DNA of 64,000 nucleotides from Pseudomonadota bacterium. GTDB taxonomy: Bacteria; Pseudomonadota; Gammaproteobacteria; Xanthomonadales; Xanthomonadaceae. The stretch spans positions 4,814 to 68,813 of the forward strand of contig JBMOOW010000120.1 in NCBI GenBank assembly GCA_049323195.1, given 5' to 3'. A program made the position numbers and the translations under genes. This document shows positions 1,653-45,859 of the stretch, one piece after another (position 1 is the stretch's first letter; the number at the start of each line of letters is the position of its first letter). Under the pieces are notes generated by a model, which saw nothing but the letters and a program-made list of their open reading frames with translations, made no database searches and was not told where the DNA came from.

Positions 1653-1680
1653 GCCCCCGTGCGTTGGAGCGCACGAGGGC
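1653..1680 (+). terminator. GC-rich hairpin downstream of the Ner-like gene (possible terminator; could also belong to the IS left end)
   Basis: GCCCCCGTGCG-TTGGAG-CGCACGAGGGC, 11-bp stem with one mismatch, followed only by TT. Confidence 0.3.
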
Positions 1681-1820
1681 TTGAGGTGCAAGGCGACTGC
1701 GATGTCGCTTGCATTCTCGGCATCCCGACTTCCTTCGTCAAGCCCTGCCCGGCGATCGCCCGGGTGGCGGTGCGGTGCTGCCGGCTGTCCGGCGACAGCG
1801 CCGCGCATGCGGGATGCACG

Positions 1821-3353
1821 ATGAGCACATTGAAAGACGTGTGCCGGGCGCTGTTGCGCACGCAACACTCCAACCGCGAGATTGCACGCCGGCTGCACTG
1901 GTCCGCGACCACCGTGGGACGGTACCGGCAGCGCCTGCTTGAAGAGTCCCTCGACTGGACCGCGGTCGAGGTGCTCGACGAGATCGCCTTGGACCGGCTT
2001 CTCAATCCCGGCCGGCACCACGGCAAGAAGCAGTTCGTCGAGCCCGACTGGGCGCACGTCCACCAGGAGCTGCAGCGGCGTGGCGTGACCAAGGCGCTCC
2101 TGCATGAGGAGTACGCGCTGGGCCTTGAGTCGGGCGCCATGTCCGAGACGGAGTTCCGGCGGCGCTATGACCGCTACGCCCGGACGCGCGGGCTGGTCAT
2201 GCGGCAGGTGCATCATCCGGGCGAGCAACTGTTTCTGGACTTCTCGGGCGTGCGGCCGTCCCTGACCGATCGCCTGACCGGTCGGAAGACGCCCGTCGAG
2301 TTCTTCGTGGCGGTCATGGGCGCCAGCCGCAAGACCTTCGCGACGGCGGTGGCCAGCCAGAAGCTGGCCGACTGGATCGCCTGCAACGCCGGTGCGCTCG
2401 CGTTCTTCGGGGGCGTGCCGATGCACTTGGTGCCGGACAACCTGAAGGCGGCCGTCATCTCGCGCTCGCGCGAGGACGGCCCGGTGCTGAACGCGACGTA
2501 CGCCGAGTTCGCGACGCACTACGACACCGACATCCATCCGACGCGGCCGCGCAGACCGAAGGACAAGGCGGCGGTCGAGGTCGGCGTGCAGGTGGCGCAG
2601 CGCTGGATCCTGGCCCGTCTGCGCAACCGGGTGTTCTATACGCTGAAAGAGCTCAATGCGGCGATCGCCGAGTTGACCGAGCGACTGAACAACCGCCCGA
2701 TGCGGGGCTGTGGTGGCAAGAGTCGCAACCAGCTTTTCGACGAGCTCGACGCCCCGGCGCTGCGCCCGCTGCCGGCGACTCCCTACGAATATGCCGAGTG
2801 GAAGCTCAAGGTCACCGTCGGTCAGGACTACCACGTCCCGTGGGGCGCCCGGTACTACTCGGTGCCGTACACGCTGGTCGGCGCCAAGGTGAACGTCAAG
2901 GCCACCCGTGACACGGTGACGGTGTTCCATCGGGACCGTCGCGTCGCGCTGCATCCGCGCGTCGACGAGGCCGGGTGCAGCACGCTGCCGGAGCACCAGC
3001 CTGCAGCGCATCGGGCCTATTCGCAGGACACGTCCGCCACGCTGATGGCCTGGGCCACGCAGCAGGGTGGCGCCATCCACCGGTTCGTCCAACACCACAT
3101 CGACAACCACCGGCGGCCCGCGCTCTCGCTGCAGGCGTGCCGCGGCCTCCAGCGGCTCGGCCGCGAATACGGCACGGAGCGCCTGCAGGCGGCGTGCGAC
3201 CGCGCGCTCCGGGCGCACGCGACCAGCATCAGCTCCGTCAAATCGATTCTCAAGCGCGGCCTTGAAGCCACGCCGCCGGCATCGCCCGAAGCGGCGAACG
3301 ATGACCCGCTGCCCGCCCACGAGAACGTGCGCGGCGCCCACTACTACACCTGA
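1821..3353 (+). CDS. istA: IS21-family transposase IstA
   Basis: ATG at 1821 (MSTLKDVCRALL...); N-terminal HTH, DDE/rve-like core (LDFSGV...FVAVMGASRKTFA...VPDNLKAAV), about 510 aa, 17 nt upstream of istB. Confidence 0.93.
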   Translation: MSTLKDVCRALLRTQHSNREIARRLHWSATTVGRYRQRLLEESLDWTAVEVLDEIALDRLLNPGRHHGKKQFVEPDWAHVHQELQRRGVTKALLHEEYALGLESGAMSETEFRRRYDRYARTRGLVMRQVHHPGEQLFLDFSGVRPSLTDRLTGRKTPVEFFVAVMGASRKTFATAVASQKLADWIACNAGALAFFGGVPMHLVPDNLKAAVISRSREDGPVLNATYAEFATHYDTDIHPTRPRRPKDKAAVEVGVQVAQRWILARLRNRVFYTLKELNAAIAELTERLNNRPMRGCGGKSRNQLFDELDAPALRPLPATPYEYAEWKLKVTVGQDYHVPWGARYYSVPYTLVGAKVNVKATRDTVTVFHRDRRVALHPRVDEAGCSTLPEHQPAAHRAYSQDTSATLMAWATQQGGAIHRFVQHHIDNHRRPALSLQACRGLQRLGREYGTERLQAACDRALRAHATSISSVKSILKRGLEATPPASPEAANDDPLPAHENVRGAHYYT

Positions 3354-3370
3354 TTCACAAGGAGACCCGC

Positions 3371-4126
3371 ATGACCCTGCAGAACACTTTCGACCGGCTG
3401 CGCGAGCTGCGCCTGAACGGCATGATGGAAGGGCTGGAGCACCAGCTCAGCCAGACCGCCTACAGCGGATTGGCTTTTGAAGAGCGGCTCGGCCATCTGG
3501 TGGATGCCGAGCGCAGCCATCGCGATACCCAGCGGCTCAAGCGCCTATTGAAGAACGCGCGGCTCAAGACCAACGCCGAACCCGAAGCCATCGACTACAG
3601 GCCCGGTCGTGGGCTGGATCGGGCGGTCATCGCCGACCTGTTGACGTGCGGATGGGTTGAGCGTCGGCAGAACGTCTTGGTGACCGGGCTGACCGGGACG
3701 GGCAAGACGTGGCTAGCCTGCGCCTTGGGCGTGCAGGCCGCGCGCAAGGGCCACACCGTGGCCTACAGGCGCGTGAGGCGGATGCTGGAAGAACTGGAAA
3801 TCGCCCATGCCGATGGGTCGCTCGCCAAGGTACGGAACCAGCTGGCCAAGGTCGAGCTGCTGATCCTGGATGACTTCGGCCTGACCCCACTCAACAATCG
3901 GGGGCGGGCCGAGCTGCTCGAAGTGCTGGACGATCGCGTTGGCAGCGGCGCTACGATCGTCGCCGGCCAGATGCCGATCAAGGACTGGCACGCCTTCATC
4001 AACGACCCTGCGTTGGCCGATGCGATCCTGGATCGGTTGATCCACAGCAGCCACAAGCTCGTGCTCAAGGGCGAATCGATGCGCAAACGGAAAGGCGCCG
4101 CCCTGGCGGCGTCGGAAACCGGCTGA
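3371..4126 (+). CDS. istB: IS21-family helper ATPase IstB
   Basis: 251 aa; LRELRLNGMMEGLEHQL N-terminus, Walker A GLTGTGKTW, Walker B LLILDDFG. Confidence 0.93.
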   Translation: MTLQNTFDRLRELRLNGMMEGLEHQLSQTAYSGLAFEERLGHLVDAERSHRDTQRLKRLLKNARLKTNAEPEAIDYRPGRGLDRAVIADLLTCGWVERRQNVLVTGLTGTGKTWLACALGVQAARKGHTVAYRRVRRMLEELEIAHADGSLAKVRNQLAKVELLILDDFGLTPLNNRGRAELLEVLDDRVGSGATIVAGQMPIKDWHAFINDPALADAILDRLIHSSHKLVLKGESMRKRKGAALAASETG

Positions 4127-13879: not shown

Positions 13880-14075
13880 GCGTGGAGATCCGCCCCGGGT
13901 GCGCTGCGCTTACCCGGGCTACGGAAGGCGGCGGCGCGAAAGTGGGCGTGGAGATCCGCCCCGGGTGCGCTGCGCTTACCCGGGCTACGGAAGGTGGCGG
14001 CGCGGAAGCGGGCGTGGAGATCCGCCCCGGGTGCGTTGCGCTTGCCCGGGTTACGGCGCGCGGCGGCACGTGGCC
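13880..14075. repeat. three tandem copies of a 66-bp REP-like palindromic element
   Basis: GCGTGGAGATCCGCCCCGGGTGCG(C/T)TGCGCTT(A/G)CCCGGG(C/T)TACGG starts at 13880, 13946, 14012; each copy contains hairpin CCCGGGTGCGC/GCGCTTACCCGGG. Confidence 0.85.
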
Positions 14076-14630: not shown

Positions 14631-14762
14631 GAGAAACCGGGGTCGGAGTCGGGTTTCCTGCGACGCGTCCGCCGCGCGCGACCTGCAGGGCGCGCGGCTC
14701 ACACCGCGGCCGAGGGCGCCGTGTGCACCGGAGTCGAGCGCGGACGCACATGGCTGCGGGAA

Positions 14763-15135
14763 CGTGCCGGCCACGTGCGTGGCGTGCCAGCTGGAGTCGT
14801 CCTTGCGGTAGTAGCCGCCCGGATCGTGCGCGTCGGCGTCGCGGCCGTTGCCATCGCCGGCGGTGCGGCTGTCGCTGATGAAGTCGTAGCCCGGGAGGAT
14901 GTCGCCGGGCAGGTCGCTGTGGTCGGTGTAGCCGGTGTCGGACACCGCCACCACCGCGCCGTTGCCACTGGTGGTGTTCGGCGCGGATGCCGCCCGTGCC
15001 GCTCTGCATGCCCCAGGGGTAGGCGCCGCAGTGCGTGTCGTTGGGCGTCATCAGCGGCTGCATCAGCGGGACGACCTCGACCTCGACGTAGTCGGCGTTC
15101 GGGTCGGCGGCGATCCGGCGCATCAGACCGGCCGC
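14763..15135 (-). pseudogene. remnant of a subtilisin-like (S8) serine peptidase, frameshifted and truncated
   Basis: Frame A: AAGLMRRIAADPNADYVEVEVVPLMQPLMTPNDTH...GGIRA; frame B after a shift near 14980: SGNGAVVAVSDTGYTDHSDLPGDILPGYDF...SSWHATHVAGT (Asp and His regions); similarity ends there and no Ser region follows. Confidence 0.6.
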
Positions 15136-15172
15136 ACTTGAAACCCATCCATGCCAGGCGGATGTTGCCGCC

Positions 15173-15343
15173 ATGGACCCCGCCTCCGACCCGCGCCCGA
15201 TCCCGCCGGAGAAGCCCCTGCCCGGCGACTGCTGCGACAGCGGCTGCGCGGTCTGCGTGCTCGACAGCTACCGGGAGGAACTCGAGTACTACCAGGCGCA
15301 GCTGGCGGCCTGGCTCGAGCGGCATCCCGGCAACCAACCCTGA
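15173..15343 (+). CDS. small Oxidoreductase-like-domain protein (56 aa), not in the ORF track
   Basis: ATG 15173 to TGA 15341-15343; MDPASDPRPIPPEKPLPGDCCDSGCAVCVLDSYREELEYYQAQLAAWLERHPGNQP; PxxP...CCxSGCxxCV...Y motif; GC-rich third positions. Confidence 0.6.
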   Translation: MDPASDPRPIPPEKPLPGDCCDSGCAVCVLDSYREELEYYQAQLAAWLERHPGNQP

Positions 15344-15496
15344 CCGGGGGCTGCACGGCTTCCGGGAGGCCGCCGCGCGCTGTGTGGGCCACGGACCCGG
15401 GGCGAAAGCCGGGCCGCCGGCGCGGCGGGCCCGCCGTTCCGGCGCACGTGGCACAAGCGCCTAGAATCGCGCTCCCGCTAACCGCCCGGAAGGCGC

Positions 15497-16045
15497 ATGT
15501 CCCCCAAGTCCACCGTGGTCAAGGTCGAGCTGCAGGTCAGCGACATGGACCGGCACTACTACGCCAGCCATGCGCTCACGCTGGCGCAGCATCCGTCGGA
15601 AACCGACCTGCGCCTGCTCGTTCGCCTCATCGCCTTCGCGCTGCATGCCGACGAGCGCCTGGAGTTCGGCCGCGGCCTGGGCGACGAGGACGAACCCGCG
15701 CTGTGGAGGCGCGACTACACCGGCGCCATCGAGCAGTGGATCGAGCTCGGCCAGCCCGACGAGTCGCGCCTGCGCAAGGCGGCGGGACGCGCGGCGCAGG
15801 TGGTCGTGGTGGGCTACGGCGGGCAGGCGTCGGAGCTGTGGTGGACGCGCAATGCCGCCGCGCTGGCGCGGCTTCGCGCGCTCACGGTGATCGACCTCGA
15901 CCCGCAGGAACTCGATGCCGCGCTGCCCCTGCTTTCGCGCGGGGCGCGGCTCACCGCCATGATCCAGGACGGCGAGCTGCAGCTGATGGACGCCGAGCGC
16001 AGCGTCGCGCTGCGGCCCCGGGTGCGCGCGTCCGGCGGCGGTTAG
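15497..16045 (+). CDS. yaeQ: YaeQ-family protein
   Basis: 182 aa; KVELQVSDMDRHYYASHALTLAQHPSETDLRLLVRLIAFAL matches the YaeQ N-terminal pattern. Confidence 0.88.
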   Translation: MSPKSTVVKVELQVSDMDRHYYASHALTLAQHPSETDLRLLVRLIAFALHADERLEFGRGLGDEDEPALWRRDYTGAIEQWIELGQPDESRLRKAAGRAAQVVVVGYGGQASELWWTRNAAALARLRALTVIDLDPQELDAALPLLSRGARLTAMIQDGELQLMDAERSVALRPRVRASGGG

Positions 16046-16314
16046 GCCCTTCGGAGGAGACGACGGTGGACGTCGACCAGGCTCATGCGGCATTCGCGGC
16101 GCTGACGCTGGAGCAGAGACAGGCCCCGCGAGGCGGCAGAACGCCGGAAAGCGGAGAACGCACGCGCCGTGGCCGGCCAGAAGCGCATGCCGCTTTCGGT
16201 CCTGCTCGGATTCGCCGGCGGCGCGCAGCCTGGTCACGTGTTTGTCAGGCATTGGCACCTGCCCGGGATGTTCGGCGCTGGCCTCGGCACGGTCGTCGGT
16301 AGCGCCCTGCGGCG

Positions 16315-16639: not shown

Positions 16640-17224
16640 ATGCATGGAGATCCGCATGTGACCGTCGCCAAGCGTCGTCCGCCCTGGCACGAGCTGCGCC
16701 GCCTGCCCGACGGGCGCGAGGTGCTGATCCGCCCGGTCCGTCCGGCCGACGCCGATCCGCTGCGCGCCGCGTTCCCGCTGCTGCAGCCCGAAGAGGTGCA
16801 GCAGCGCTTCATGTGTTCGATGAAGGAGATGGCGCCCTCGATGGCGCGGCGCCTGACGCGGATCGACCCGCGCAGCGAATTCGCGCTGGTGGCCGCCGAG
16901 CCGCTGCCGCCGGGCGAGGCGCGCGTCGGCGCGGTGGCACGCATCGCGCTGGACCCGGGCGGGCGACGCGGCGAGTTCGCCATCCTCGTCAGCCACTACC
17001 TCGCGCACATGGGGCTGGGCCGGCACCTCATGACGCGGCTGGTGAAGTGGTCGCGCCGCCGCGGGCTCGACGCGCTCTACGGCGACGTGCTGGAAACCAA
17101 CGGCCCCATGCTGCGCCTGGCCGACGCGCTGGGCTTCGCGCGCCGCGCGGGGGCCGAGCCGGGGCTGGTGCGGGTGGAACTGGATCTCGCGGCCCTGCGT
17201 GCCGGCGCGGCACCGGCGGGTTAG
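16640..17224 (+). CDS. GNAT-family N-acetyltransferase
   Basis: ATG at 16640; LIRPVRPADADPL...EFAILVSHYLAHMGLGRHLMTRLVKWSRRRGLDALYGDVLETNGPMLRLADALGF. Confidence 0.85.
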   Translation: MHGDPHVTVAKRRPPWHELRRLPDGREVLIRPVRPADADPLRAAFPLLQPEEVQQRFMCSMKEMAPSMARRLTRIDPRSEFALVAAEPLPPGEARVGAVARIALDPGGRRGEFAILVSHYLAHMGLGRHLMTRLVKWSRRRGLDALYGDVLETNGPMLRLADALGFARRAGAEPGLVRVELDLAALRAGAAPAG

Positions 17225-17272
17225 TTCGCGTCTTCGGGTTCGGACGCGCCGGTCGGTGGAACGCGGCGTGAC

Positions 17273-18544
17273 TCAGCGCGTGAGGGCCGGCTGCTGCTCC
17301 GGCAGGGTCTCGCGTGCGGGCACCTGCGAGGACGCGATCCATCGGTCGCTCGATTCGTGGATGGACTGCATCGATGCCTGCCAGGTGGACAGCGGACGGG
17401 TCGCGACCTCGTGCTCGCGCAACCCTGTCGGCGAGTGGACGATGCGGATGGACGTCGCGTCCGCGTTGAACTCGACGCGGTCGACATGCGCCAGGCGATC
17501 CTCCCGCATGCGCACCAGCAGCGCGGCGGCGATGTTCATGCTGTGCGGGCCCGAAGGAACACCGCGCGCGGCTTCGGCCGCCTGCACCTGCCCGAGGATC
17601 CGCTCGAACAGCCCGTAATCGGGATGGCCGGTGTCGGTGATCCGTTGCCCGTGCGGCTGCGCCAGCGCCTCGCGCGTGAGCCGGCCGACGCGACCGTCGA
17701 CTTCGAGGCCATGCGCGCGCTGGAAGGCTTCGACGGCCTCGCGCGTGCGTCCACCGAAGTCACCGTCCTCGACCAGCGGCAGGCCGCGCGCATCGCGAAT
17801 GCCGAGGTGGTTGAGCCTGCGCTGGAGCTCGCGCACCGCAGTGCCCCGGTCCCCTGCGTCCAAAGTCCCGGCCGGGCCGTCCTGCGTGCTGCCGCGTGGC
17901 GCCGCGGTGCGGTCGCCGGGCCGCGCGTCGGTGGCGCCATGAGCCTGCGGGCGATCGGGGCGACCGGGCCAGCGGCCCGGGGCGATGGTGCCGTTGTCGA
18001 TGTCGCGGATGTAGCGGCGGAACTGTTCGACCTCGCATTCGACGTGGGCGTGGATGGCACCGGGCGAACCCGTGTCGGACATCACGCCGAGAGGTTGCCC
18101 GTAGGCTACCTTTTCGCCGTCGCGCAGTGAGAACGTTCGGGGGTCCATGTGCAGGACCTGGCCCAACAGCCTCGCGCCGCGCTCGTGATGGGGGCGATCG
18201 TAGATCTGGAGCGTCGCGGTCTTGTCGTGCAGGTAGTGCACGTAGCCGGCCACCGGAGCCGGGATGCGTGGCTGGCCGGGCGAATCGTCGAGCAGGATGA
18301 AGTCCTTCTTGACCAGTGTACGCCCGTCCGGCGTACGCCTGATCTCCTCGAATTCCCCCTGGACCCGGGCGTGGACGCGGCCGGGCTCGAAGTCTTCGGG
18401 CCGGCCGGTCCTCAGGCCCCTGACGTTGTGCGATGGATGGTGGATTTCGAGATCGTCGTAGGTGTGCACGCGCTCGATGCCATGGCGAGCACTTTCGACA
18501 ATGCGGTATCTGTCCATTGAGCGTCCTTGCGTCATTGCGGTCAT
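17273..18544 (-). CDS. candidate antibacterial T4SS effector (X-Tfe-like): M23 peptidase + peptidoglycan-binding domain + XVIPCD-like C-terminus
   Basis: HYLHD (HxxxD) and GSPGAIHAHVE (HxH) M23 motifs; PG_binding_1-like GDRGTAVRELQRRLNHLG...DGDFGGRTREAVEAFQRAHGLEVDGRVG; C-terminus GHPDYGLFERIL...HSMNIAAALLV...LAHVDRVEFN...; start 18544 forms ATGA with the immunity gene stop. Confidence 0.75.
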   Translation of the reverse strand: MTAMTQGRSMDRYRIVESARHGIERVHTYDDLEIHHPSHNVRGLRTGRPEDFEPGRVHARVQGEFEEIRRTPDGRTLVKKDFILLDDSPGQPRIPAPVAGYVHYLHDKTATLQIYDRPHHERGARLLGQVLHMDPRTFSLRDGEKVAYGQPLGVMSDTGSPGAIHAHVECEVEQFRRYIRDIDNGTIAPGRWPGRPDRPQAHGATDARPGDRTAAPRGSTQDGPAGTLDAGDRGTAVRELQRRLNHLGIRDARGLPLVEDGDFGGRTREAVEAFQRAHGLEVDGRVGRLTREALAQPHGQRITDTGHPDYGLFERILGQVQAAEAARGVPSGPHSMNIAAALLVRMREDRLAHVDRVEFNADATSIRIVHSPTGLREHEVATRPLSTWQASMQSIHESSDRWIASSQVPARETLPEQQPALTR

Positions 18545-19014
18545 TCCCACGTGGGTTCGGGATCGGAAGCGAGCTGCCAGCAACCGTTATTGCGTTCGAA
18601 GAGCCAGGAATTGCCTTCCGACGTACCGATCACGTAGCGCACCAGCATCGCGGAACCCCGCGCCTGGACGACCGGTACGACCGGATCGCCCCATGGCGCT
18701 CCATCGGCATCCAGGTGCCGGAACGCGCCGTCGACGAAAGCGAGGCTGAAGCCTCGATACTCTTGCCGCGGAACGTTGCGGGTCTCTTTAACGGGATCGA
18801 TCGCGCTGGCGTCCACCCAGTCGGTAACGCGCACGGTGGCCGCCGTATGGCGTGCCCTGACGCGCGAGTCGGCCGCGAATGCCCGGAGGAACGCGTTGAA
18901 GTCGCCGCCCCCGGGACAGTCGACGGAAGACTGCGCAAGCGAGCCGCTGGCGCCTGGCGCACATGCGCAGGCGATCGCAGCGGGTAGCAGTGCAAGGGCG
19001 ATGCGTCCGGTCAT
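18541..19014 (-). CDS. lipoprotein, candidate cognate immunity protein (X-Tfi-like)
   Basis: ATG at 19014; MTGRIALALLPAAIACACAPG signal/lipobox; immediately upstream of and overlapping the effector gene. Confidence 0.6.
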   Translation of the reverse strand: MTGRIALALLPAAIACACAPGASGSLAQSSVDCPGGGDFNAFLRAFAADSRVRARHTAATVRVTDWVDASAIDPVKETRNVPRQEYRGFSLAFVDGAFRHLDADGAPWGDPVVPVVQARGSAMLVRYVIGTSEGNSWLFERNNGCWQLASDPEPTWE

Positions 19015-19174
19015 GGGAAGTCCTTTCGGCAAGGCGGACGGCGCTTCCGAACCCGAGCCGTCCATGGCGCGCCCATGCTAGCCATGCCACTGCGACCCTG
19101 GCAATCCATCCGGGCGATGGGCTCGACCGGGATGTCCGCACCCGTGTGTAGGCCTGTCGCGACCGGCGGCAGCG

Positions 19175-21472
19175 TCACGCCGCTTGCGCGCTGTCTCCAC
19201 CCGCGTGCACCCGGGTGATCGACATGGCGCAAGGCGATGCGCTCCTCGCGCGCTCCCCGGCCGGCAAGCGAAACACCGCCACCGCCTCGACCAGCCGCTC
19301 GGCCTGCGCTTGCAGGCCGAGGGCGGAGGCGGAGGCCTGTTCGACGAGGGCTGCGTTCTGCTGCGTGCCCGCGTCCATGTGCGCCACCGCGTCGCCGATG
19401 CGGGCGATGCCGTCGGCCTGCTGCGACGATGCGCGGGCGATGTCGGCCACCAGGCCGCTCACGCGCTGGGCGTCGTCGACGATCTGCGCGATGCGGCCGT
19501 GCGCGGTGCCCACCCATTCGCTGCCCGCCTCGACCTGTACCACCGAGGTGGCCACCAGGTCGCGCACGTCGCGCGCGGCGGCGGCGGAGCGTTGCGCGAG
19601 GTTGCGCACCTCGGCGGCGACCACCGCGAAGCCGCGGCCTTCCTCCCCCGCGCGCGCCGCTTCCACCGCCGCGTTGAGCGCGAGGATGTTGGTCTGGAAG
19701 GCGATGCCGTCGATCACGCCGACGATCTCGGCCACGCGGCGCGATGCGCTGCGGATGCCGTCCATGGTGTCCACCACGCGATCCATCGCCGCGCCGCCTT
19801 CGCCCGCGGTGTGCGCGGCGTCGCCCGCCAGGCGCTGGGCCTGCTGCGCACCCGCGGTATTTCCGCGCACGGCGGCGGTGAGTTCGTCCATCGCCGCGCC
19901 GGTCTGCTCCAGCGATGCGGCCTGCTGTTCGGTGCGGCGCGCGAGGTCGGCATTGCCGGCGGCGATCTCGTCGGCCGCCGCGCGGATGGCGTTGGCGGCG
20001 AGGCGGATCGCGCCCACCGTCTCGCCCAGTCGCGCGGCGCTGCGGTTGGCGGCGGCCTGCAGGCGGCCGAACTGGCCGTCGAGCGCGGCATCGGCGCGAT
20101 AGCCGAGGTCGCCGGCGGCCAGCGCGTCGAGCATGCGTTCGAGTTCGCCGAGCGCGGTGCGCGTGGCATCGACCAGGCGGTTCACGTCCTGGCCGAGATG
20201 GCGCAGGAAGCCCTGCTGGCGGGTGGTGTCGATGCGTGCGTGGAAGTCGCCGTTCGCCGCCGCGCCGACCACGCGCGCGACCTCCGCCTCCATCGCGAGT
20301 TCGACCGTGCGGTCGCGCCACTCGGTGGCCAGCCCGATGCGGGCGCCCTCGTCGTCGAGCACGGGCGTGAGCACCAGGTCGAAGACGTGGCCGCCCAGCT
20401 CGATGCGCACCTCGCGTGCCTGGCCCAGCGTGGCCAGCAGTTCGTGGCTGATGCCGGTGCCGTCGAACAGCGCGTCCATCGGGGTGCCGACGAGGGCGTC
20501 GGCGCGGAAGTCGGCACGCGTGCGGCGCAGGTCGGCTTCGGTGGCGGCCAGCAGCGCGGCCATGCCGCGATTGGCATAGGCGATGCGCAGCTCGCGGTTG
20601 GCCACCAGTACGTTCGATGCCGAGGCATCCAGCGCGCAGCGCAGGCGCGTGGCCTCGCGCAGCATGCGCGCGCCGTCCTCGACCTGGAAACCCAGCCGCA
20701 CCTGCATGGACTTCAGGCCCAGCAGCAGGCGGCCGACCTCGTCGTTGCGATCGATCGCGATGGCCTGGTCGTAGCGGCCATCGGCAAGCGCGTGGAAGTG
20801 CGCATTGGCCGCATCGAGCCGGCCGACCACGTCGCGCCCGAGCCAGGCAGCGCTGTAGAGCGCGAACACGCCGCCCCCGCCCAGCAGCGTGGCGAGCGCG
20901 CCGTCACCTGCATGCCGTGCGAGCCAGGCCGCCGCCGCGAAGGCCACGCTGCCGAGCGCGGCCAGCAGCAGGCGCTGGCGCAGCGACAGCAGCCAGAGCG
21001 GGTTGAGGCGGCGCAGCGGATGGCGGCGGTCGATGCGCCCATGGCGGAAGCGCAGCCGCGCATCGCCCTCGCGCAGCGCCACGTGCCGGGCTTCGGCCTC
21101 TTCGATCTGCGCGCGCGTGGCGCGCCGCCGCACCGACATGTAGCCCACGTGGCGGCCGTCCTCGTGCAGCGGGGTGACATGCGCCTCCACCCAGTAGTGG
21201 TCGCCGTTCCTGCAGCGGTTGCGGACCATGCCTACCCAGGGGCGCCCGGATTTCAGCGTCGCCCAGAGATCGGCGAAGGCCGCTGCCGGCATGTCGGGAT
21301 GGCGCACGATGTTGTGCGGCTGGCCCAGCAGTTCGTGCTCGGCATAGCCGCTGACCTGCACGAAGGCCGTGTTGACATAGGTGATGCGGCCTTCGGGGTC
21401 GGTCTTCGAGACCAGGGGATGGTCGTCGGGCAGCATCACCTCGACGCCGGTCACGGGCAGGTTGCTTCGCAT
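19175..21472 (-). CDS. PAS-domain methyl-accepting chemotaxis protein (Aer-like N-terminus)
   Basis: ATG at 21472; ITYVNTAFVQVSGYAEHELLGQPHNIVRHPDMP PAS, two TM segments, HAMP, signalling domain IAFQTNILALNAAVEAARAGEEGRGFAVVAAEVRNLA. Confidence 0.9.
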   Translation of the reverse strand: MRSNLPVTGVEVMLPDDHPLVSKTDPEGRITYVNTAFVQVSGYAEHELLGQPHNIVRHPDMPAAAFADLWATLKSGRPWVGMVRNRCRNGDHYWVEAHVTPLHEDGRHVGYMSVRRRATRAQIEEAEARHVALREGDARLRFRHGRIDRRHPLRRLNPLWLLSLRQRLLLAALGSVAFAAAAWLARHAGDGALATLLGGGGVFALYSAAWLGRDVVGRLDAANAHFHALADGRYDQAIAIDRNDEVGRLLLGLKSMQVRLGFQVEDGARMLREATRLRCALDASASNVLVANRELRIAYANRGMAALLAATEADLRRTRADFRADALVGTPMDALFDGTGISHELLATLGQAREVRIELGGHVFDLVLTPVLDDEGARIGLATEWRDRTVELAMEAEVARVVGAAANGDFHARIDTTRQQGFLRHLGQDVNRLVDATRTALGELERMLDALAAGDLGYRADAALDGQFGRLQAAANRSAARLGETVGAIRLAANAIRAAADEIAAGNADLARRTEQQAASLEQTGAAMDELTAAVRGNTAGAQQAQRLAGDAAHTAGEGGAAMDRVVDTMDGIRSASRRVAEIVGVIDGIAFQTNILALNAAVEAARAGEEGRGFAVVAAEVRNLAQRSAAAARDVRDLVATSVVQVEAGSEWVGTAHGRIAQIVDDAQRVSGLVADIARASSQQADGIARIGDAVAHMDAGTQQNAALVEQASASALGLQAQAERLVEAVAVFRLPAGERARSASPCAMSITRVHAGGDSAQAA

Positions 21473-31679: not shown

Positions 31680-32243
31680 TTACCGCTGCGCCGCGCGGAA
31701 TTTAGGCAGGTCGGCGGGCGCACACAGGCGCTGCCGAAGAAGGTCGAGCGTGCGGTGATGGTCCGAGCGCAACTGCTCGTTCCGACCGAGCGAGGGATGC
31801 TTGAACAGCCCGTGCTCCCACAGCCCGGCAGCCGCTTCCGCGAGCGACTCGTCGCGCCATTCGAAGCCGAGCCAGGCCTCTGTCCGGCGGCCGTTGATCG
31901 AGGCCAGCAGGCTGCGGTCGCGCGCCTGGCCGAAGCTGAAGCCGGACGCGAACGCCGCGGCTTCGGCGTCCACCCGCGGCCCCTCGATGCCGAAGTACGC
32001 GCAGAGCGAAGCGAACTGCAGGGCGGCGCGCTCGTGCAGCGCCTTCAGGCCCGCGGCGTTGCCGTTGAGCACGAGCGTGGCGCCGGTGGACGCGTTGAGC
32101 ACCAGCACGAAGGGCTTGCGGTTCCAGAAGTCGACATCCGCATGCCACTCGCCGAGCGGGTTCAGCTGCGGCGAAGGCTCCGGCAGCTTCGGAGACTGGC
32201 GCAGGCGCTTGAGCAGCTTGGCCGTGCAGCGCAGGACGGTCAT
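31680..32243 (-). CDS. hypothetical protein (possibly DUF6933-like), last gene of the defence operon
   Basis: 187 aa; start forms ATGA with the stop of the Res-like gene; MTVLRCTAKLLKRL...LGEWHADVDFWNRKPFVLVLNASTGATLVL. Confidence 0.65.
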   Translation of the reverse strand: MTVLRCTAKLLKRLRQSPKLPEPSPQLNPLGEWHADVDFWNRKPFVLVLNASTGATLVLNGNAAGLKALHERAALQFASLCAYFGIEGPRVDAEAAAFASGFSFGQARDRSLLASINGRRTEAWLGFEWRDESLAEAAAGLWEHGLFKHPSLGRNEQLRSDHHRTLDLLRQRLCAPADLPKFRAAQR

Positions 32244-35200
32244 GGGGCGGGCCCCGCGGCGAGGATCGCCGCGATCACGTGCGCGTAATCGGCCTGCGGG
32301 AACAGGATGTGCCGGGCCGCGAAGTCGGTCTCAGTCCACGGCACGCCCCAGCGGTCGCATAGTTCCGCGAGCGGCGTTTCCGAAACGATCCACGCATCGA
32401 CTTCGATGTCGCTCCGTCCGGCAGCCGCCAGCCCGGGCGCGACGTAATCGCGCAGGCGCGTGTGGAAGTCGGTCACCTTGTCGCCGCCGCGGCTCTCGTT
32501 GAGCAGCCCATGCGGCTCGACGAAGACGACGCGGTGGCGCCGTCCGTCGGTCGTCCACAGGATGAAGTCCGGAAAGAAACCTTCGCTCTCGTAAAAGCCC
32601 AGCCCGTGCCCGCGCGACTGATTGCGCAGCAGGTAGAGGCGCTGACCGGCGGGCAGCCGTCCAGCCTCGCAGTGCACCCGGAGCGCATCGACGAAGTCGT
32701 GTTCCGAGCGGCTAAGACCCTTGGGCGAAACGCTCACCCCCTCCACGCTCTCGTCTTCGGCGACGAGCAGGGGCTGATAGAGATGCCGGTCGAAACCGGA
32801 CCGTGCGATCTGCGGGAAGTCGCCTGCCGCGGGCGGGCGACCGGCCGCGAGGTCAGCCGCAAGGCGCTGCAGCTCGGCGATCAACGGCTGCCGGTCCACC
32901 CGCACCACGACGCGATACGGGCGGTACTGCGCCTGCGCTTCGCCGACCCGGGTCACGCGCATGTGCTGCGTCTCGAACTGCTTCTGCTGGCGGCGGTAAT
33001 CACGCTCGAACCAGGTTTCCAGCGCCTCGAACACGGCTTCCTGCAGGCGGCCCAGCGCGGCGTCATCCGCAGGCTTGAAGAAATCATCGTCTGCGATGAA
33101 CTGGCAATGCGACGCGACCAGCTCGCGCAGTTGCACCGGCCGCAGCACGACGTTAGTCCAGCCCCGCACGCGCTTTTTCTCGAGCAGACGGAAGTAGGCG
33201 CGCGTCCAGTCCACCAGTCCGAGCAGGCTTGGCGGAAGGTCGCGCGGGGGCGCTCGCTCGCCCGTGCCACCTTCCAGGCCCGCGCTGCCACCCCGGTAGT
33301 GGGAAAAGCGCGACGTCGCATCGTGCCGCACCGGCATTCTCGCCTGCAGGCCTAGGCCCACCACGCGCTCGGTTCGGAACCGCGATTCGCCCGGTGGCTC
33401 GAAATAGGGCAGGTCGGCGACGCCCGCGTCGTGCGCATCCAGGCGCCAGAGCGGCAGCTCGATCACGACGGACGGCAGGTCGTCCACGCCCTCGCGCAGC
33501 AGCGCCTCGCGGAACGTCCGCATGTACGAGGCATGCACCGAGAACACATTGAGCTGCTCGAGCCAGCGGATGTCCGGCGGATGCTCGATGCCGGGCAGTG
33601 CGGAAGAGCGCTTCAGGCTGCGGCCCAGGCCCAGCAGGCGCACGCCACGCCCGAACAGCTGGATGATCTGCGCGCCTTCCTTCTTGCCGACGTTGAGCAA
33701 GCCGAGGCTGCTGACGCGCCAGCTGCTCCAGCCTTCGATGAACTTCTTCGCGCCGATCAGCAGGTGGATGCCCGAATCGCGCCGGTCGATCTCCCGGAAC
33801 AGCGAGCCGCCGACCACGTCGTCGAGCACGGTCACGCCGTCGGCCTTCAGCAGCTTCTCGAGCGCGCTGGTGTCGCCCACGTTGACCACGCCGAAAGGCC
33901 GGGCGGCGCCTTCCGCACGCAGCGCCATTTCGCCGTCCGCGTCCCGGATGGGCTGCACCTGCAGGCGGCTGGCAGCGCCTTCGACGTGGAAGACGCGCGA
34001 GAGCACATCCGCCAGCAGCGCGTCGAAGTCGGCGTTCTCGGGATAGCGGCCGCGCAGCCAGTCCAGGGCCTCGTGAAGCGCGGCACGCCCGTCCTCGCCG
34101 CGGAACAGCCGCGCATCGTGCAGCAGGCGCTTGACCAGCCGCGCCGATTCGCCGCGGCGGTTGGTCAGGAACGCATCGAGGAAATGCAGCACGGCGGCGA
34201 TGTCCGACCCGCCCGTCTTGCCGCTGTCCACCCGCGCGCCCACGTACACCCACAACGGCCTCTCGATGCCGTACGGCCGCCAGTCCGTGCCGTCGGCATG
34301 CACGCGCAGCTGCTGGTAGTAGCTGAGCAGGTTGGCGGCCATCAGCCGGCGGCGAATGTCCTCGTCCTCGCTGTCCACGTTCAGCAGGCGGAAGTCCTTG
34401 CCGAAGCCGTCGCCGTGGAAGTAGCGGTACGAGTAGTCAAAGAGGATGGCCTTACCGTACTCGGCCAGCAGGTCCTCATTGCCTGCCGCGTTGAGCGCCT
34501 GCCCGAAGGTGGCGCTGTACTCGAAGGTGAAGCCGCTCGCGCCCAGCGCGTCGCGGTAGCCCTTCCACACGGTGCCACCGCTGCCCTTGTGGCCCTCGTC
34601 CACGAAGACGAGATTCGGCACGTCGCGACGGACCAGCTGCTCGACGGGCACACGGACGCCGCCATCCTTCTTTTCGTCCACCAGCTTGGTGATCTCGATC
34701 ACCTGTACCGCGTCGCTGGCGCCCACCAGCGGGGGGCGCTCCGGGTCAAAGCGCTCGATCGCGATCCCCGAGGCGCGCGCCTCGGCGATGTGCTGGGCCG
34801 ACAGGCCTTCGTTGGGCGTGATCAGCAGGATGTTGTTGACCGGGCCCGGGAAGTAATGCCGGTACTGCATCACGTGGAAGTGCAGCAGCAGGGTCTTGCC
34901 GCTGCCGGTGGCCATCCAGAAGGCCAGCTTGCGCAAATCGTCCCGGCCGAAGGGCCGCGCACCGGCGAAATCGGCCTGCGTCGCGGCGAAGCGGTTCAGG
35001 CTGTCGAGCAGGGCGCCGGGTGCGTTGGCGAGCCGGTCCAGGTAAAGCTCCGTGAACAGCAGCGCGAGCACCTGGAAGTAGCGCAGCTGCAGCGGCTGCG
35101 CGGCGCGGGCGCGGTTGATGCGCTCGAGGTGGGCGCGGATGTTGGCGTCGAACCGCAGAAGGTCTTTCTGCAGGGCCGCGTCGCGCACGTAGCCGATCAG

Positions 35201-35425
35201 TGCCCGGGTGACGTGGAACACGCCGTCGACGCCCACGCCCTCCTGCACGGCGGCACAGCGCGCCAACAGGGTGCGGTTGTCCGGCTGGCCGAGCAGGTGC
35301 AGCGCCCAGCGCAGCAGCACGAGGCGCTGCTCCAATCGCGCGGTCATGAGCGATGCCGAGCCCGCCGGGTTGGTGGCGGCAGGCGCGGTGGCCGTTGCTG
35401 TTGCGGCGCGTCTTGCGCGCGGCAT
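32240..35425 (-). CDS. type III restriction Res-like SF2 helicase with C-terminal PD-(D/E)xK-like nuclease module
   Basis: ATG at 35425 (TGATG with HepT stop); motif I WMATGSGKT, II FVDEGHKG, III YSATFG, EGWSS, VI QLFGRGVRL; C-terminus FFPDFILW...VVFVEPHG. Confidence 0.82.
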   Translation of the reverse strand: MPRARRAATATATAPAATNPAGSASLMTARLEQRLVLLRWALHLLGQPDNRTLLARCAAVQEGVGVDGVFHVTRALIGYVRDAALQKDLLRFDANIRAHLERINRARAAQPLQLRYFQVLALLFTELYLDRLANAPGALLDSLNRFAATQADFAGARPFGRDDLRKLAFWMATGSGKTLLLHFHVMQYRHYFPGPVNNILLITPNEGLSAQHIAEARASGIAIERFDPERPPLVGASDAVQVIEITKLVDEKKDGGVRVPVEQLVRRDVPNLVFVDEGHKGSGGTVWKGYRDALGASGFTFEYSATFGQALNAAGNEDLLAEYGKAILFDYSYRYFHGDGFGKDFRLLNVDSEDEDIRRRLMAANLLSYYQQLRVHADGTDWRPYGIERPLWVYVGARVDSGKTGGSDIAAVLHFLDAFLTNRRGESARLVKRLLHDARLFRGEDGRAALHEALDWLRGRYPENADFDALLADVLSRVFHVEGAASRLQVQPIRDADGEMALRAEGAARPFGVVNVGDTSALEKLLKADGVTVLDDVVGGSLFREIDRRDSGIHLLIGAKKFIEGWSSWRVSSLGLLNVGKKEGAQIIQLFGRGVRLLGLGRSLKRSSALPGIEHPPDIRWLEQLNVFSVHASYMRTFREALLREGVDDLPSVVIELPLWRLDAHDAGVADLPYFEPPGESRFRTERVVGLGLQARMPVRHDATSRFSHYRGGSAGLEGGTGERAPPRDLPPSLLGLVDWTRAYFRLLEKKRVRGWTNVVLRPVQLRELVASHCQFIADDDFFKPADDAALGRLQEAVFEALETWFERDYRRQQKQFETQHMRVTRVGEAQAQYRPYRVVVRVDRQPLIAELQRLAADLAAGRPPAAGDFPQIARSGFDRHLYQPLLVAEDESVEGVSVSPKGLSRSEHDFVDALRVHCEAGRLPAGQRLYLLRNQSRGHGLGFYESEGFFPDFILWTTDGRRHRVVFVEPHGLLNESRGGDKVTDFHTRLRDYVAPGLAAAGRSDIEVDAWIVSETPLAELCDRWGVPWTETDFAARHILFPQADYAHVIAAILAAGPAP

Positions 35426-35769
35426 CAGCCCGCCCCCTGGAGCAGGGCATCGACCTGCGCACGCAAGCCCGGCAAACGCGTCTGCACGATGTCCCAGACC
35501 AATGCATCGTCCACGTCCGCATAGCCGTGGATCAGGATGTTGCGGAAGGCGATGATGCGACGATGGTCCCCGATGCGCGCCAGCAGCGCGGGGTCGCGCC
35601 GGCCGAGCTGGGCAAGCGCCTCGCCGATGATCTCGAACTGGCGCTCCACCGCCGCGCGCAGCATCGCGTCGCGTTCGTAGTCTTCCCACTGCTTCCCCGC
35701 CACGAAGTCGTGCAGGCGCTGCGCGGCGCTCTGCACGTCGAACAGGTACTTGGCGGATTCAAGCCGCAT
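35425..35769 (-). CDS. hepT: HepT-like (DUF86/HEPN) toxin
   Basis: ATG at 35769; MRLESAKYLFDV...AVERQFEIIGEA...IIAFRNILIHGYADVD (Rx4H motif); overlaps the MNT gene by 11 nt. Confidence 0.82.
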   Translation of the reverse strand: MRLESAKYLFDVQSAAQRLHDFVAGKQWEDYERDAMLRAAVERQFEIIGEALAQLGRRDPALLARIGDHRRIIAFRNILIHGYADVDDALVWDIVQTRLPGLRAQVDALLQGAG

Positions 35770-36079
35770 AGAGCGCCTCGCGCTGGCCTTCGATGGCCTG
35801 CCGGAAGAAGGGATTGCGGATGGCGCGCTCGACCACGAGATCCACGGGGGCATCGAACAGCTGTTCGAGGTCCTCGCGCAGGCCGAAGTAGGCCTCGGCG
35901 TACGCGCCCGGGGGCAGCGGCTCGAAGTCCACCAGCAGGTCCACGTCGCTGCCCGGATGGCCTTCGCCGCGAGCGAGCGAGCCGAACAGCTCCAGCCGTC
36001 GCACGTGGCGGCGGCGGCAGACCGTGGCGATGGCCTCGCGCTGGGCGGTGACACGGGCACGCAGGTCGAGGGCGGACAT
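35759..36079 (-). CDS. mntA: MNT-type nucleotidyltransferase antitoxin
   Basis: 106 aa; LELFGSLARGEGHPGSDVDLLVDF minimal nucleotidyltransferase motif. Confidence 0.82.
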   Translation of the reverse strand: MSALDLRARVTAQREAIATVCRRRHVRRLELFGSLARGEGHPGSDVDLLVDFEPLPPGAYAEAYFGLREDLEQLFDAPVDLVVERAIRNPFFRQAIEGQREALYAA

Positions 36080-36083
36080 AGCT

Positions 36084-38912: not shown

Positions 38913-39283
38913 TCGGTGGGGTCCGGAGAGACGTGCAGTGCGTCGGCGGGCGTGTCGTTCAGGGCGTCGAGATCCCGGGAGGCGTGCCAGATCCGGACGA
39001 CGCTGATATGGGTAGGCTGATCCACGTAGTAGACGAGATACCTGTCGAAGCCGCGTACGTGTAGAAGGCGCAGCGGCGCCGGCAGGACCGGGATCATCCG
39101 AGCATGGCGCGCGGAGCCGATTTCGGGGAAGGCGGCGATGTGCGCGAGCGTGGTGTCCAGCGCGTCGAGGAATCGCTCACCCAGCGCCAGTCCGCCGTGC
39201 AGGGCGTAGCGCCAAGCGGTTTCCGAGGCGTCCGCTTCGGCCTGCGGCCGCCACTCAATTGCCTTCACGAGCCCAGCGGTCAC
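38909..39283 (-). CDS. parE: ParE/RelE-family toxin
   Basis: KAIEWRPQAEADASE...FPEIGSARH...LRLLHVRGFDRYLVYYVDQPTHISVVRIWHASRD; GTG starts at 39283 (AAGGA 5 nt upstream) or 39268; stop forms ATGA with the methyltransferase start. Confidence 0.78.
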   Translation of the reverse strand: MTAGLVKAIEWRPQAEADASETAWRYALHGGLALGERFLDALDTTLAHIAAFPEIGSARHARMIPVLPAPLRLLHVRGFDRYLVYYVDQPTHISVVRIWHASRDLDALNDTPADALHVSPDPTE

Positions 39284-39512
39284 GCAGATCCTTGCGCATG
39301 CGGTCGAACCTGGCCGCGTCCACGGGAACGGCCAGGCCGGACGCCAGTCCCTCGGCGATGGCCTGCCGCAACGCCTCCTCGGCCTTGGCGCGCTGCCGCT
39401 GGCGCAGCAGGTCGCGCATGTAGTCCGACGTGCTGGCGAAACCGCCCTCGCGGACTTCCTCGTCCACGAACTGCTTGAGCGGATCGGGGAGGGAGATGTT
39501 CATGGTGGCCAT
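39255..39512 (-). CDS. parD: ParD-family (RHH) antitoxin
   Basis: 85 aa; MNISLPDPLKQFVDEEVREGGFASTSDYMRDLLRQ. Confidence 0.78.
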   Translation of the reverse strand: MATMNISLPDPLKQFVDEEVREGGFASTSDYMRDLLRQRQRAKAEEALRQAIAEGLASGLAVPVDAARFDRMRKDLRDRWAREGN

Positions 39513-45067: not shown

Positions 45068-45859
45068 CTACTTCGCGGCGGTCAGCGGTATGCGTCCGTC
45101 CAGGGCGCGGGGCGACAGGCCCAGTGCCCGGCGGTAGCGCGCGTACAGCGCGCGCACCTTCTCCACGTAGGCGCGCGTTTCGCGGTAGGGCGGCACGCCT
45201 CCGTAGCGGGCGACCACGCCTGCGCCGGCGTTGTAGGCGGCGGCTGCAAGCACCAGGTCGCCGCGGTAGCGGCGGATCAGCTGGCGCAGGTGGCGCGCGC
45301 CGCCGTCGATGGACTGCACCGGCGAATGCGGATCGGTGACTCCTAACTCCCGCGCGGTGCCCGGCATGAGCTGCATCACGCCGCGCGCGCCCTTGGGCGA
45401 GACGGCCTGCGGATCGAAGCCGCTTTCGGCATGCGCGATCGCGCGCAGGTAGGCATCGTCCACCCCCGTCTTCTTCGCCGCGGCACGGAACTGCGGCGCG
45501 AAGCGGTCCACCCGCGCCGGGCCTACGCGCCCCAGCCCCTCGTGCGCGGGCTCGCCCGGCGGCGTCTGCACGGTGAAGGACAGCACCTTGCGCGAGCCCG
45601 GCAGGTTGCGCGTGCTGTAGACGGTCCGGCCGTCCTGCTCGCGCTCGTAGAGCGTGCCCTGGACCAGGCCGAGCGCGCCCCAGAGGTTGGGAAGCTTCAC
45701 CGCGTCGTCAGGCACGTGGCGGGCTTCGCAGCGCGAGCCGGGCTCGGGTGCGGTGGCCAGGCTCACGGTGCCGCCCTGCACGCAGCGGTAGACCGTGCGT
45801 GCATGCGCGGGCCAGGCCAGCGCCGCCAGCATCAGCAGCAGGAGCAGGGCGCGGAGCAT
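45068..45859 (-). CDS. lytic transglycosylase (SLT domain) with DUF4124-like N-terminus
   Basis: 263 aa; signal peptide; AHAESGFDPQAVSPKGARGVMQLMPGTA, AAYNAG. Confidence 0.88.
   Translation of the reverse strand: MLRALLLLLMLAALAWPAHARTVYRCVQGGTVSLATAPEPGSRCEARHVPDDAVKLPNLWGALGLVQGTLYEREQDGRTVYSTRNLPGSRKVLSFTVQTPPGEPAHEGLGRVGPARVDRFAPQFRAAAKKTGVDDAYLRAIAHAESGFDPQAVSPKGARGVMQLMPGTARELGVTDPHSPVQSIDGGARHLRQLIRRYRGDLVLAAAAYNAGAGVVARYGGVPPYRETRAYVEKVRALYARYRRALGLSPRALDGRIPLTAAK

Follow-up and report, generated by a model that had tools for sequence, protein, structure and literature searches.

A divergent M23-like effector and its lipoprotein partner in a Xanthomonadaceae genome: a probable effector/immunity module of the bacteria-killing type IV secretion system

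We analysed 64,000 nucleotides (nt) of a Xanthomonadaceae genome (GenBank assembly GCA_049323195.1, contig JBMOOW010000120.1, positions 4,814 to 68,813 of the forward strand), hereafter the window, and focused on a pair of co-oriented genes that most probably form an effector/immunity module of the Xanthomonadales-type bacteria-killing type IV secretion system (X-T4SS), that is, an X-T4SS effector (X-Tfe) together with its immunity protein (X-Tfi). Both open reading frames (ORFs) lie on the minus strand, as do all features of the pair described below, and the ORF listing of the window contains them at the positions given by an initial annotation of this DNA. The predicted X-Tfi-like immunity gene (18541..19014) encodes a lipoprotein of 157 amino acids and begins at ATG 19014, which is preceded by the Shine-Dalgarno sequence AAAGGA (19026-19021) with a 6-nt spacer. 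The X-Tfe-like effector gene lies downstream (17273..18517) and comprises 414 codons plus the stop codon, or 423 codons if translation began at an alternative upstream ATG (18544). Translation of the effector likely starts at ATG 18517, because this codon follows the Shine-Dalgarno sequence AAGGA (18528-18524) with a 6-nt spacer, because the effector homologues are 412-425 amino acids long, and because the exact 414-amino-acid product was also predicted in a second, independent assembly of this organism; our protein look-up returned this version only and no record of the 423-amino-acid product. The two genes would then be separated by 23 nt. The initial annotation had described an ATGA overlap between them, whose letters are indeed in place (ATG 18544-18542, TGA 18543-18541), but with the better supported start at ATG 18517 this overlap is unlikely to be where the two genes actually meet. 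The sole sigma-70-like match within 17000-19500, where 0.1 would be expected by chance, is a promoter-like site (TTGCCA, 18 nt, TAGCAT; 19075..19104) some 60 nt ahead of the ATG of the lipoprotein gene, identified as a consensus match only.

The predicted effector is modular (the coordinates of its domains follow the 414-amino-acid numbering unless the 423-amino-acid reading is named, the offset being nine residues). Residues 1-175 (17993..18517) form the N-terminal toxin domain, which is predicted to adopt a divergent M23-like metallopeptidase fold and carries the conserved residues H26, H27, E58, K71, D72, H123, H156 and H158. This domain is followed by a disordered linker rich in Pro, Gly and Arg (residues 189-215; 17873..17953), which is highly variable in the alignment and has a predicted local distance difference test (pLDDT) score below 50, by a PG_binding_1 domain (residues 224-285; 17663..17848; Pfam PF01471), and by an XVIPCD secretion/VirD4-recognition domain with its C-terminal tail (residues 295-414; 17276..17635), here termed subtype B and recognised by its matches to Pfam PF20410 and to PDB 7mu9. 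The N-terminus of the protein reads as hydrophilic, without a signal peptide. An AlphaFold2 model built from 56 homologues reached a mean pLDDT of 87, with the toxin domain above 90, and shows a β-rich part at residues 1-175, the disordered linker, a PG-binding domain composed of helices, and, at the C-terminus, a pair of helices that leads into strands and a floppy tail; this C-terminal part agrees with the ααβββ-plus-tail organisation described for the XVIPCD (PMC8740702). The PG_binding_1 domain reported in the initial annotation was recovered with a full-length match (positions 1-57 of 57; residues 233-294 in the 423-amino-acid reading; E=4.7e-18, 65.6 bits against a cut-off of 23), and the effector family profile also matched the PG-binding domains of endolysins and of SleB in a PDB profile search.

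The initial annotation had likened the C-terminus to the XVIPCD, and profile searches bear this out. The X-Tfes_XVIPCD profile (PF20410) matched residues 304-402 of the 423-amino-acid reading with 44.4 bits against a cut-off of 24.9, and a profile of 21 members of the effector family matched the solved XVIPCD of Xanthomonas citri XAC2609 (PDB 7mu9) with E=8e-24, as well as two further XVIPCD-bearing chains (7r6s and 9p3h). Foldseek aligned the effector model with 7mu9 at a template modelling (TM) score of 0.65, normalised by the target. Alignment of the XVIPCDs separates two types, a classical one with the pattern …IDHV…FAVQG…DP… and the one found in the window, …VDRVEFN…IRIVHS…REHE…, which is our subtype B. 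The domain of the window keeps the HPD motif, the AAxL helix, and the Asp and Val equivalent to D363 and V377 of XAC2609, and has Arg at the position of F375, Glu-His at D383-P384, and DRV in place of DHV. Besides the window (17276-17635), subtype B is present in the loci L001, L011 and L022-L027 and also occurs on NlpC/P60 effectors; it is conserved across many lineages, and one 22.7-kb contig holds both subtype-B and classical-like XVIPCD effectors. Because of this conservation across the sub-lineage and its presence on NlpC/P60 effectors, subtype B may match a co-evolved VirD4. Every XVIPCD that we saw adjoining virD4 was of the classical type, and a metagenome scan with the subtype-B XVIPCD returned 3 short loci only, without T4SS genes. 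The effectors of Dyella carry a third XVIPCD variant.

The toxin domain had been described as a LytM-type peptidase with two intact motifs, HYLHD and HAHVE. Structural comparisons point to an M23-like fold: in Foldseek searches against the PDB, the N-terminal domain best matched the baseplate hub of cyanophage A-1(L) (6.9e-8), followed by EnpA, lysostaphin, LytM, LytU and the LytM domain of EnvC (about 1e-3 to 1e-2), with ShyA also matched, and against viral models (BFVD) it matched an entry named 'Peptidase M23' at 1.5e-10. Alignment of the domain family by hhalign with a canonical, Pfam-positive M23 X-Tfe of Lysobacter antibioticus gave a probability of 92.5%, and the distant relatives of the domain score 20-32 bits with the Pfam M23 profile, one of them (P0166, 31.8 bits) above the cut-off. 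We counted motif conservation over the alignment of close relatives and over 141 distant copies of the domain. The residues H26, H27, R47, E58, K71, D72, P86, G91, H123, G140, H156, H158, Y169 and D172 are near-universal. HAHVE proved to be the genuine, family-wide HxH motif, H156 and H158 being invariant in close relatives and present in 131/141 and 134/141 distant copies. The residue H123, which lies 33 residues before HxH, is likewise invariant in close relatives and kept in at least 131 of the 141 distant copies; M23 enzymes possess an additional catalytic His about 30 residues upstream of HxH (PMC9662197). In the hhalign alignment, the canonical HGGSD (Hx3D) faces LVKKD, such that the Asp is kept as D72 (135/141) and the His position is occupied by Leu68, which is L, M or F in 118 of the 141 distant copies. 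D72, H123, H156 and H158 stand at M23 catalytic positions, judging from the conservation counts and the alignment, and the conserved signature of the domain is HH…KD…H…HxH. The motif HYLHD (H94-D98) was rejected as a chance match: it follows the PxPxxG strand rather than standing at the Hx3D site, it is variable among close relatives, and in distant copies its His is found in 20/141 and its Asp in 57/141. The M23-like fold thus stands, on Foldseek and hhalign, and the assignment to canonical LytM/M23B does not, on account of Leu68 and of a Pfam score below threshold; we accordingly name the domain M23-like rather than LytM-type. We infer that it represents a divergent M23 subfamily in which the upstream His-His pair (H26/H27, n ~45) would take the place of the lost ligand.

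A profile search (E≤0.001) retrieved at least 254 representative clusters (50% identity) that contain the toxin domain. Architectures were counted over the 140 domain-bearing proteins among the best 150 listed (139 representatives and the protein of the window): 62 carry an XVIPCD and 16 are longer than 2,000 amino acids. One of the proteins, P0124 (4,321 amino acids), combines the toxin domain with a tape-measure domain. In two viral contigs of IMG/VR (119 and 147 kb; L031:3001-3477 and L032:3001-3477), a copy of the domain that is 48-49% identical lies within an ORF longer than 6.4 kb. This suggests that the toxin domain has been exchanged between phage injection proteins and T4SS effectors. 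The HH…KD…H…HxH domain was also seen embedded in giant phage ORFs encoding the proteins P0124, P0126, P0130 and P0153.

The upstream lipoprotein begins with a lipobox-containing signal peptide (residues 1-18; MTGRIALALLPAAIACAC), which continues into a low-complexity tether and a domain of about 125 amino acids with C33, C145 and the motif GxSEGNS. Its AlphaFold2 model has a pLDDT of 86.5. We found no match for the lipoprotein in Pfam, NCBIfam or PADLOC, and PADLOC and NCBIfam yielded no useful name for the effector either. A single-sequence search retrieved 2 relatives of the lipoprotein and a profile of 5 sequences retrieved 42, all of which present the lipobox, the two invariant Cys and GxSEGNS; the lipobox Cys is aligned in all 43 aligned family members. 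These features, together with ATG 19014 and its AAAGGA, support the lipoprotein gene that the initial annotation had placed upstream of the effector, and on these searches the protein is best assigned to an unannotated family. In L. antibioticus, the canonical M23 effector is preceded by a lipoprotein that shows distant relatedness over its N-terminal part. One subfamily of the immunity lipoproteins (P0088-P0103, 282-310 amino acids) has an extra N-terminal domain, which in P0089 shows homology (E=9e-32) to the lipoprotein encoded ahead of another X-Tfe of L. antibioticus (L003:2286-2810); the members of this subfamily appear to be fused double-immunity proteins.

The two families are consistently found together. 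Members of both occurred side by side in 26 of 26 related loci drawn from genomes and metagenomes, the lipoprotein gene always being the immediate upstream neighbour of the effector gene; the best match in our scan of the genome collection was 57-64% identical. Divergence of the toxin domain is strongly correlated with divergence of the lipoprotein (Mantel r=0.94, reached by 0/5000 permutations) and less so with that of the XVIPCD (r=0.57), and the toxin-lipoprotein correlation persists when controlling for the XVIPCD (partial r=0.92). The ratios of nonsynonymous to synonymous substitution rates (dN/dS) relative to the nearest relative are 0.16 for the toxin domain, 0.44 for the immunity gene, 0.25 for the XVIPCD and 0.24 for PG_binding_1, the XVIPCD ratio being drawn from 14 substitutions only and the XVIPCD and PG_binding_1 figures from 19. 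The invariant gene order and the Mantel correlation, along with the lipobox and the two invariant Cys, support the proposed role of the lipoprotein as the immunity partner of the effector. Homologous pairs are also linked to X-T4SS genes elsewhere. In L. antibioticus 76, five XVIPCD effectors, each with a small ORF before it, form an array that is directly followed by virD4, and the homologous pair takes the fourth place in it. Pairs lie 1-6 kb from virD4 in X-Tfe arrays of six loci (L003, L005, L006, L017, L019 and L020); besides strain 76, this arrangement with virD4 at 1-6 kb is found in L. antibioticus 13-6, Lysobacter sp. CA196, cf310 and Root916, and an Arenimonas metagenome-assembled genome. 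Other members adjoin further X-Tfes in Dyella and Pseudoxanthomonas.

We then compared the window with a 224-kb metagenome contig (L001) that is syntenic with it over about 17 kb at 82-98% nucleotide identity. Within this region, a 1.2-kb segment (18056..19271) that spans the promoter region, the immunity gene and the toxin domain to codon ~154 shares only 40-67% nucleotide identity with L001, whereas its flanks share 93-100%, and the transition is abrupt at both edges in a sliding window and in the mismatches at the edges. Between the window and L001, synonymous divergence (dS) reaches 1.89 for the toxin domain, compared with 0.06 for the remainder of the effector gene, and the GC content is 0.669 in the segment against 0.72-0.74 in the flanks. 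Because dS contrasts so sharply within one gene and the edges are so abrupt, we interpret the segment as a replacement by a diverged allele and not merely as the product of fast evolution. Its toxin-side edge lies two codons before HAHVE. The toxin domain of the window is 69% identical to that of L. antibioticus and 68% identical to that of the syntenic L001, and the respective XVIPCDs are 18% and 95% identical; the immunity proteins of the window and L001 share 44% identity. As judged from these comparisons, the toxin-plus-immunity part behaves as an exchangeable cassette that would recombine at the HxH motif independently of the delivery domains. In another relative (L024:7697-9250), a second ORF of the immunity family and a 278-amino-acid ORF that retains no more than the initial ~30 residues of the toxin domain lie upstream of the pair; these extra ORFs are consistent with a displaced older cassette.

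These observations lead to the following model, which is predicted from sequence and structural comparisons. The 414-amino-acid effector would be made in the cytoplasm without a signal peptide. Its C-terminal XVIPCD would dock on the all-alpha domain of VirD4, and the effector would pass into a neighbouring Gram-negative cell through a T4SS presumably encoded elsewhere in the genome. Once in the periplasm of the prey, PG_binding_1 would anchor the effector to the sacculus, where the M23-like domain, a putative zinc endopeptidase, would cleave peptide stems or cross-links, leading to a weakened wall and lysis. The lipoprotein, tethered in the periplasm of the producer, would bind and block the toxin domain and thereby guard against leaked or incoming effector; the X-Tfis of periplasm-acting effectors are lipoproteins (PMC6536674, PMC10933484).

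Several observations weigh against an X-Tfe/X-Tfi module. In the 64-kb window, VirD4 is absent (tblastn), the domain scans show no VirB gene, the Pfam and NCBIfam scans of the remaining ORFs revealed no T4SS gene, and we did not find a second XVIPCD, in agreement with the initial annotation. No T4SS gene was present within 10 kb of any subtype-B effector that we examined, and all of these effectors are solitary in the available flanks. The subtype-B XVIPCD appears to lack two of the VirD4-contact positions defined in X. citri, where mutating the positions F375 and D383-P384 lowers VirD4 binding and killing the most (PMC8740702). In addition, X-Tfe tails are characterised by a Gln-rich C-terminus of mixed hydrophobic and positively charged residues (PMC8740702), and the tail of the effector (...ASSQVPARETLPEQQPALTR), with 3 Gln in its last 20 residues and ALTR at the end, is Gln-poor. 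The canonical Hx3D His is absent from the toxin domain by hhalign, and Peptidase_M23 (PF01551) scored 15.8 bits on the effector, below its cut-off of 28.7, so that catalysis is assumed. Finally, a fold search with the lipoprotein model returned nothing significant, the weak matches being to NTF2-like/DUF4348 folds (best E=0.016). Part of this pattern would be expected if the X-T4SS had been lost or was never present and the pair were kept for protection against the related toxins of neighbours or by addiction, the loss of immunity being lethal as long as the toxin is produced. The decay of such pairs does happen: in Dyella lutea (L016:9923-11386), the effector homologue has two in-frame stops and the upstream immunity gene is intact, which may represent a decaying effector with retained immunity. 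The solitary position of all subtype-B pairs, in unrelated contexts far from virD4, while the classical ones adjoin it, keeps this explanation alive. We nevertheless consider it unlikely. The effector frame of the window is intact and its XVIPCD and PG_binding_1 domains show dN/dS of 0.25 and 0.24 (19 substitutions only), subtype B is conserved across many lineages and on a second architecture, NlpC/P60, and its occurrence beside a classical-type XVIPCD effector on the 22.7-kb contig suggests a working delivery system by which it is recognised. Moreover, in X. citri only one X-Tfe gene lies inside the vir locus and T4SS-positive genomes generally have their X-Tfes dispersed (PMC6536674); the location of the pair away from a T4SS locus, which had been proposed from the start, is therefore normal for X-Tfes.

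Two other explanations appear considerably less probable. It is conceivable that the pair is a housekeeping endopeptidase for wall remodelling with a lipoprotein regulator or inhibitor, unrelated to interbacterial killing, given that M23/LytM-type domains and PG_binding_1 are common in autolysins and that genes for an SLT transglycosylase and for an L,D-transpeptidase carrying PG_binding_1 lie in the same window. The enzyme has neither a signal peptide nor a lipobox, however, and therefore cannot reach the peptidoglycan by Sec or Lol export; it carries an XVIPCD, its homologues stand in toxin arrays by virD4, and the swapping of the toxin/immunity cassette between close relatives is typical of antagonistic toxins and not of core wall enzymes, which makes a housekeeping role very unlikely. 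Even less probable, in our view, is a phage remnant, in which the chromosome would have captured a lysis or injection protein such as a tape-measure or hub lysin domain. The best structural match and the best PDB sequence match of the toxin domain are indeed to the cyanophage baseplate hub, and the domain is found at 48-49% identity in the 119-kb and 147-kb viral contigs and in proteins of 2,800-4,800 amino acids, among them one with a tape-measure domain. Yet no phage genes flank the pair, whose neighbours (a methyl-accepting chemotaxis protein, GGDEF proteins, GNAT and YaeQ) are syntenic with the relative, and the effector displays the full X-Tfe architecture with a dedicated lipoprotein partner, so that the phage link concerns the origin of the domain and not its present function. 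An effector/immunity module of the X-T4SS is therefore the interpretation that we favour. Building on it, we advance more tentatively a joint proposal, possible but far less secure than the module itself: the toxin domain would be an undescribed M23 subfamily (HH…KD…H…HxH, the lost His presumably replaced by the His-His pair) common to X-T4SS effectors and giant phage tape-measure/hub proteins and neutralised by unannotated NTF2-like lipoproteins, toxin and immunity would be swapped as a cassette at HxH, and subtype B would constitute a second VirD4 recognition code.

The remainder of the window encodes an IS21 element, c-di-GMP and chemotaxis signalling proteins, a restriction/toxin-antitoxin island, an aconitase, wall enzymes and a PilT/PilU ATPase. 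The latter, a T2SSE-family ATPase (58009-59277), was considered as a candidate VirB11 and rejected, since it is a type IV pilus ATPase of the PilT/PilU type (447 bits for TIGR01420 against 67 bits for VirB11), and an SLT protein (45068-45859) considered as VirB1 gave no VirB1-specific signal. This SLT lytic transglycosylase and the L,D-transpeptidase (YkuD) with PG_binding_1 (50765-51916) are apparently ordinary wall enzymes unrelated to the effector. No insertion sequence (IS) element and no long terminal repeat flanks the pair, around which only short, chance-level repeats were found. Relative to L001, the window lacks about 1.5 kb of a DUF885 gene together with the larger part of a peptidase S8 gene at 14759-16314, where fragments are left, and L030, a second and independent assembly of this organism, likewise holds an 85-amino-acid DUF885 remnant. 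A 66-nt tandem repeat (2.8 copies, 91% matches; 13880-14067) lies just upstream of a DUF2058 gene. The IS21-family element (1659-4126) consists of an IstA-like transposase (rve and Mu-transposase C-terminal domain) and an IstB ATPase. A defence-like island (32240-39512) comprises a ResIII-type helicase of 1,149 amino acids, a nucleotidyltransferase, an N6/N4 DNA methylase of 942 amino acids and a ParE/ParD pair; a DUF6933 gene (31680-32243) lies just downstream of it, and the GC content falls to 58% at 37-38 kb.

The X-T4SS effectors are weapons that many soil and plant Xanthomonadales use against rivals, and a considerable fraction of them have an N-terminal domain of no recognised family (PMC6536674). 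The locus places one such unannotated effector family in the M23 fold, offers a candidate active-site signature for it, and pairs it with an unannotated family of predicted immunity lipoproteins. It further suggests that the toxin/immunity half has been swapped between close relatives with the delivery half fixed. The same modular diversification is found in contact-dependent inhibition (CDI) and Rhs toxins. The divergent XVIPCD subtype may also provide a natural experiment on substrate recognition by VirD4. The established picture of X-T4SS biology is unchanged by the locus.

The toxin domain can be compared with characterised M23 enzymes (LytM, lysostaphin, EnpA and LasA), with which it shares the β-sheet fold, HxH (H156, H158), H123 corresponding to H260 of LytM, and D72 corresponding to the Asp of Hx3D (PMC9662197). 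It differs from them in having Leu68 in place of the Hx3D His, an invariant H26-H27 pair 45 residues upstream in an N-terminal extension, and an invariant K71. Its closest solved relative is the C-terminal domain of the cyanophage A-1(L) baseplate hub (PDB 8kea; profile E=1.7e-5, Foldseek 6.9e-8), which presents the same pattern of xxYDF/KKDF, PxPxxG, LHM and HxH and likewise lacks the Hx3D His. In contrast to the effector, the phage hub and tape-measure domains lie inside virion proteins of 900-4,800 amino acids without an XVIPCD, PG_binding_1 or a partner lipoprotein.

As a pair, the two genes resemble XAC2609/XAC2610 of X. citri, the prototype X-T4SS effector/immunity pair, whose effector also combines a peptidoglycan-degrading catalytic domain, a PG-binding domain and a C-terminal XVIPCD without a signal peptide (PMC8740702, PMC10933484). 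Both systems have an adjacent immunity gene with a signal peptide and lipobox, and both XVIPCDs present HPD, the AAxL helix and the equivalents of D363 and V377. The catalytic domain of XAC2609 is GH19/lysozyme-like, whereas that of the window effector is M23-like, and XAC2610 is described as a β-propeller, whereas the lipoprotein of the window is modelled as a small NTF2-like α+β domain. Further differences from XAC2609 are Arg for F375, Glu-His for D383-P384, the Gln-poor tail, and the location of the window pair outside any vir locus. The pair of L. antibioticus 76 (CP011129.1), which is without functional annotation, consists of P0025, named 'peptidoglycan-binding domain-containing protein', and the upstream 189-amino-acid lipoprotein P0065; both families and their order are the same as in the window. 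Sequence identity between the two effectors is 51% over the whole protein and 69% for the toxin domain, and that between the immunity proteins is 44%. The L. antibioticus pair differs in standing within a five-effector array directly upstream of virD4 and in carrying a classical XVIPCD (FAVQG…DP) that is about 18% identical to that of the window.

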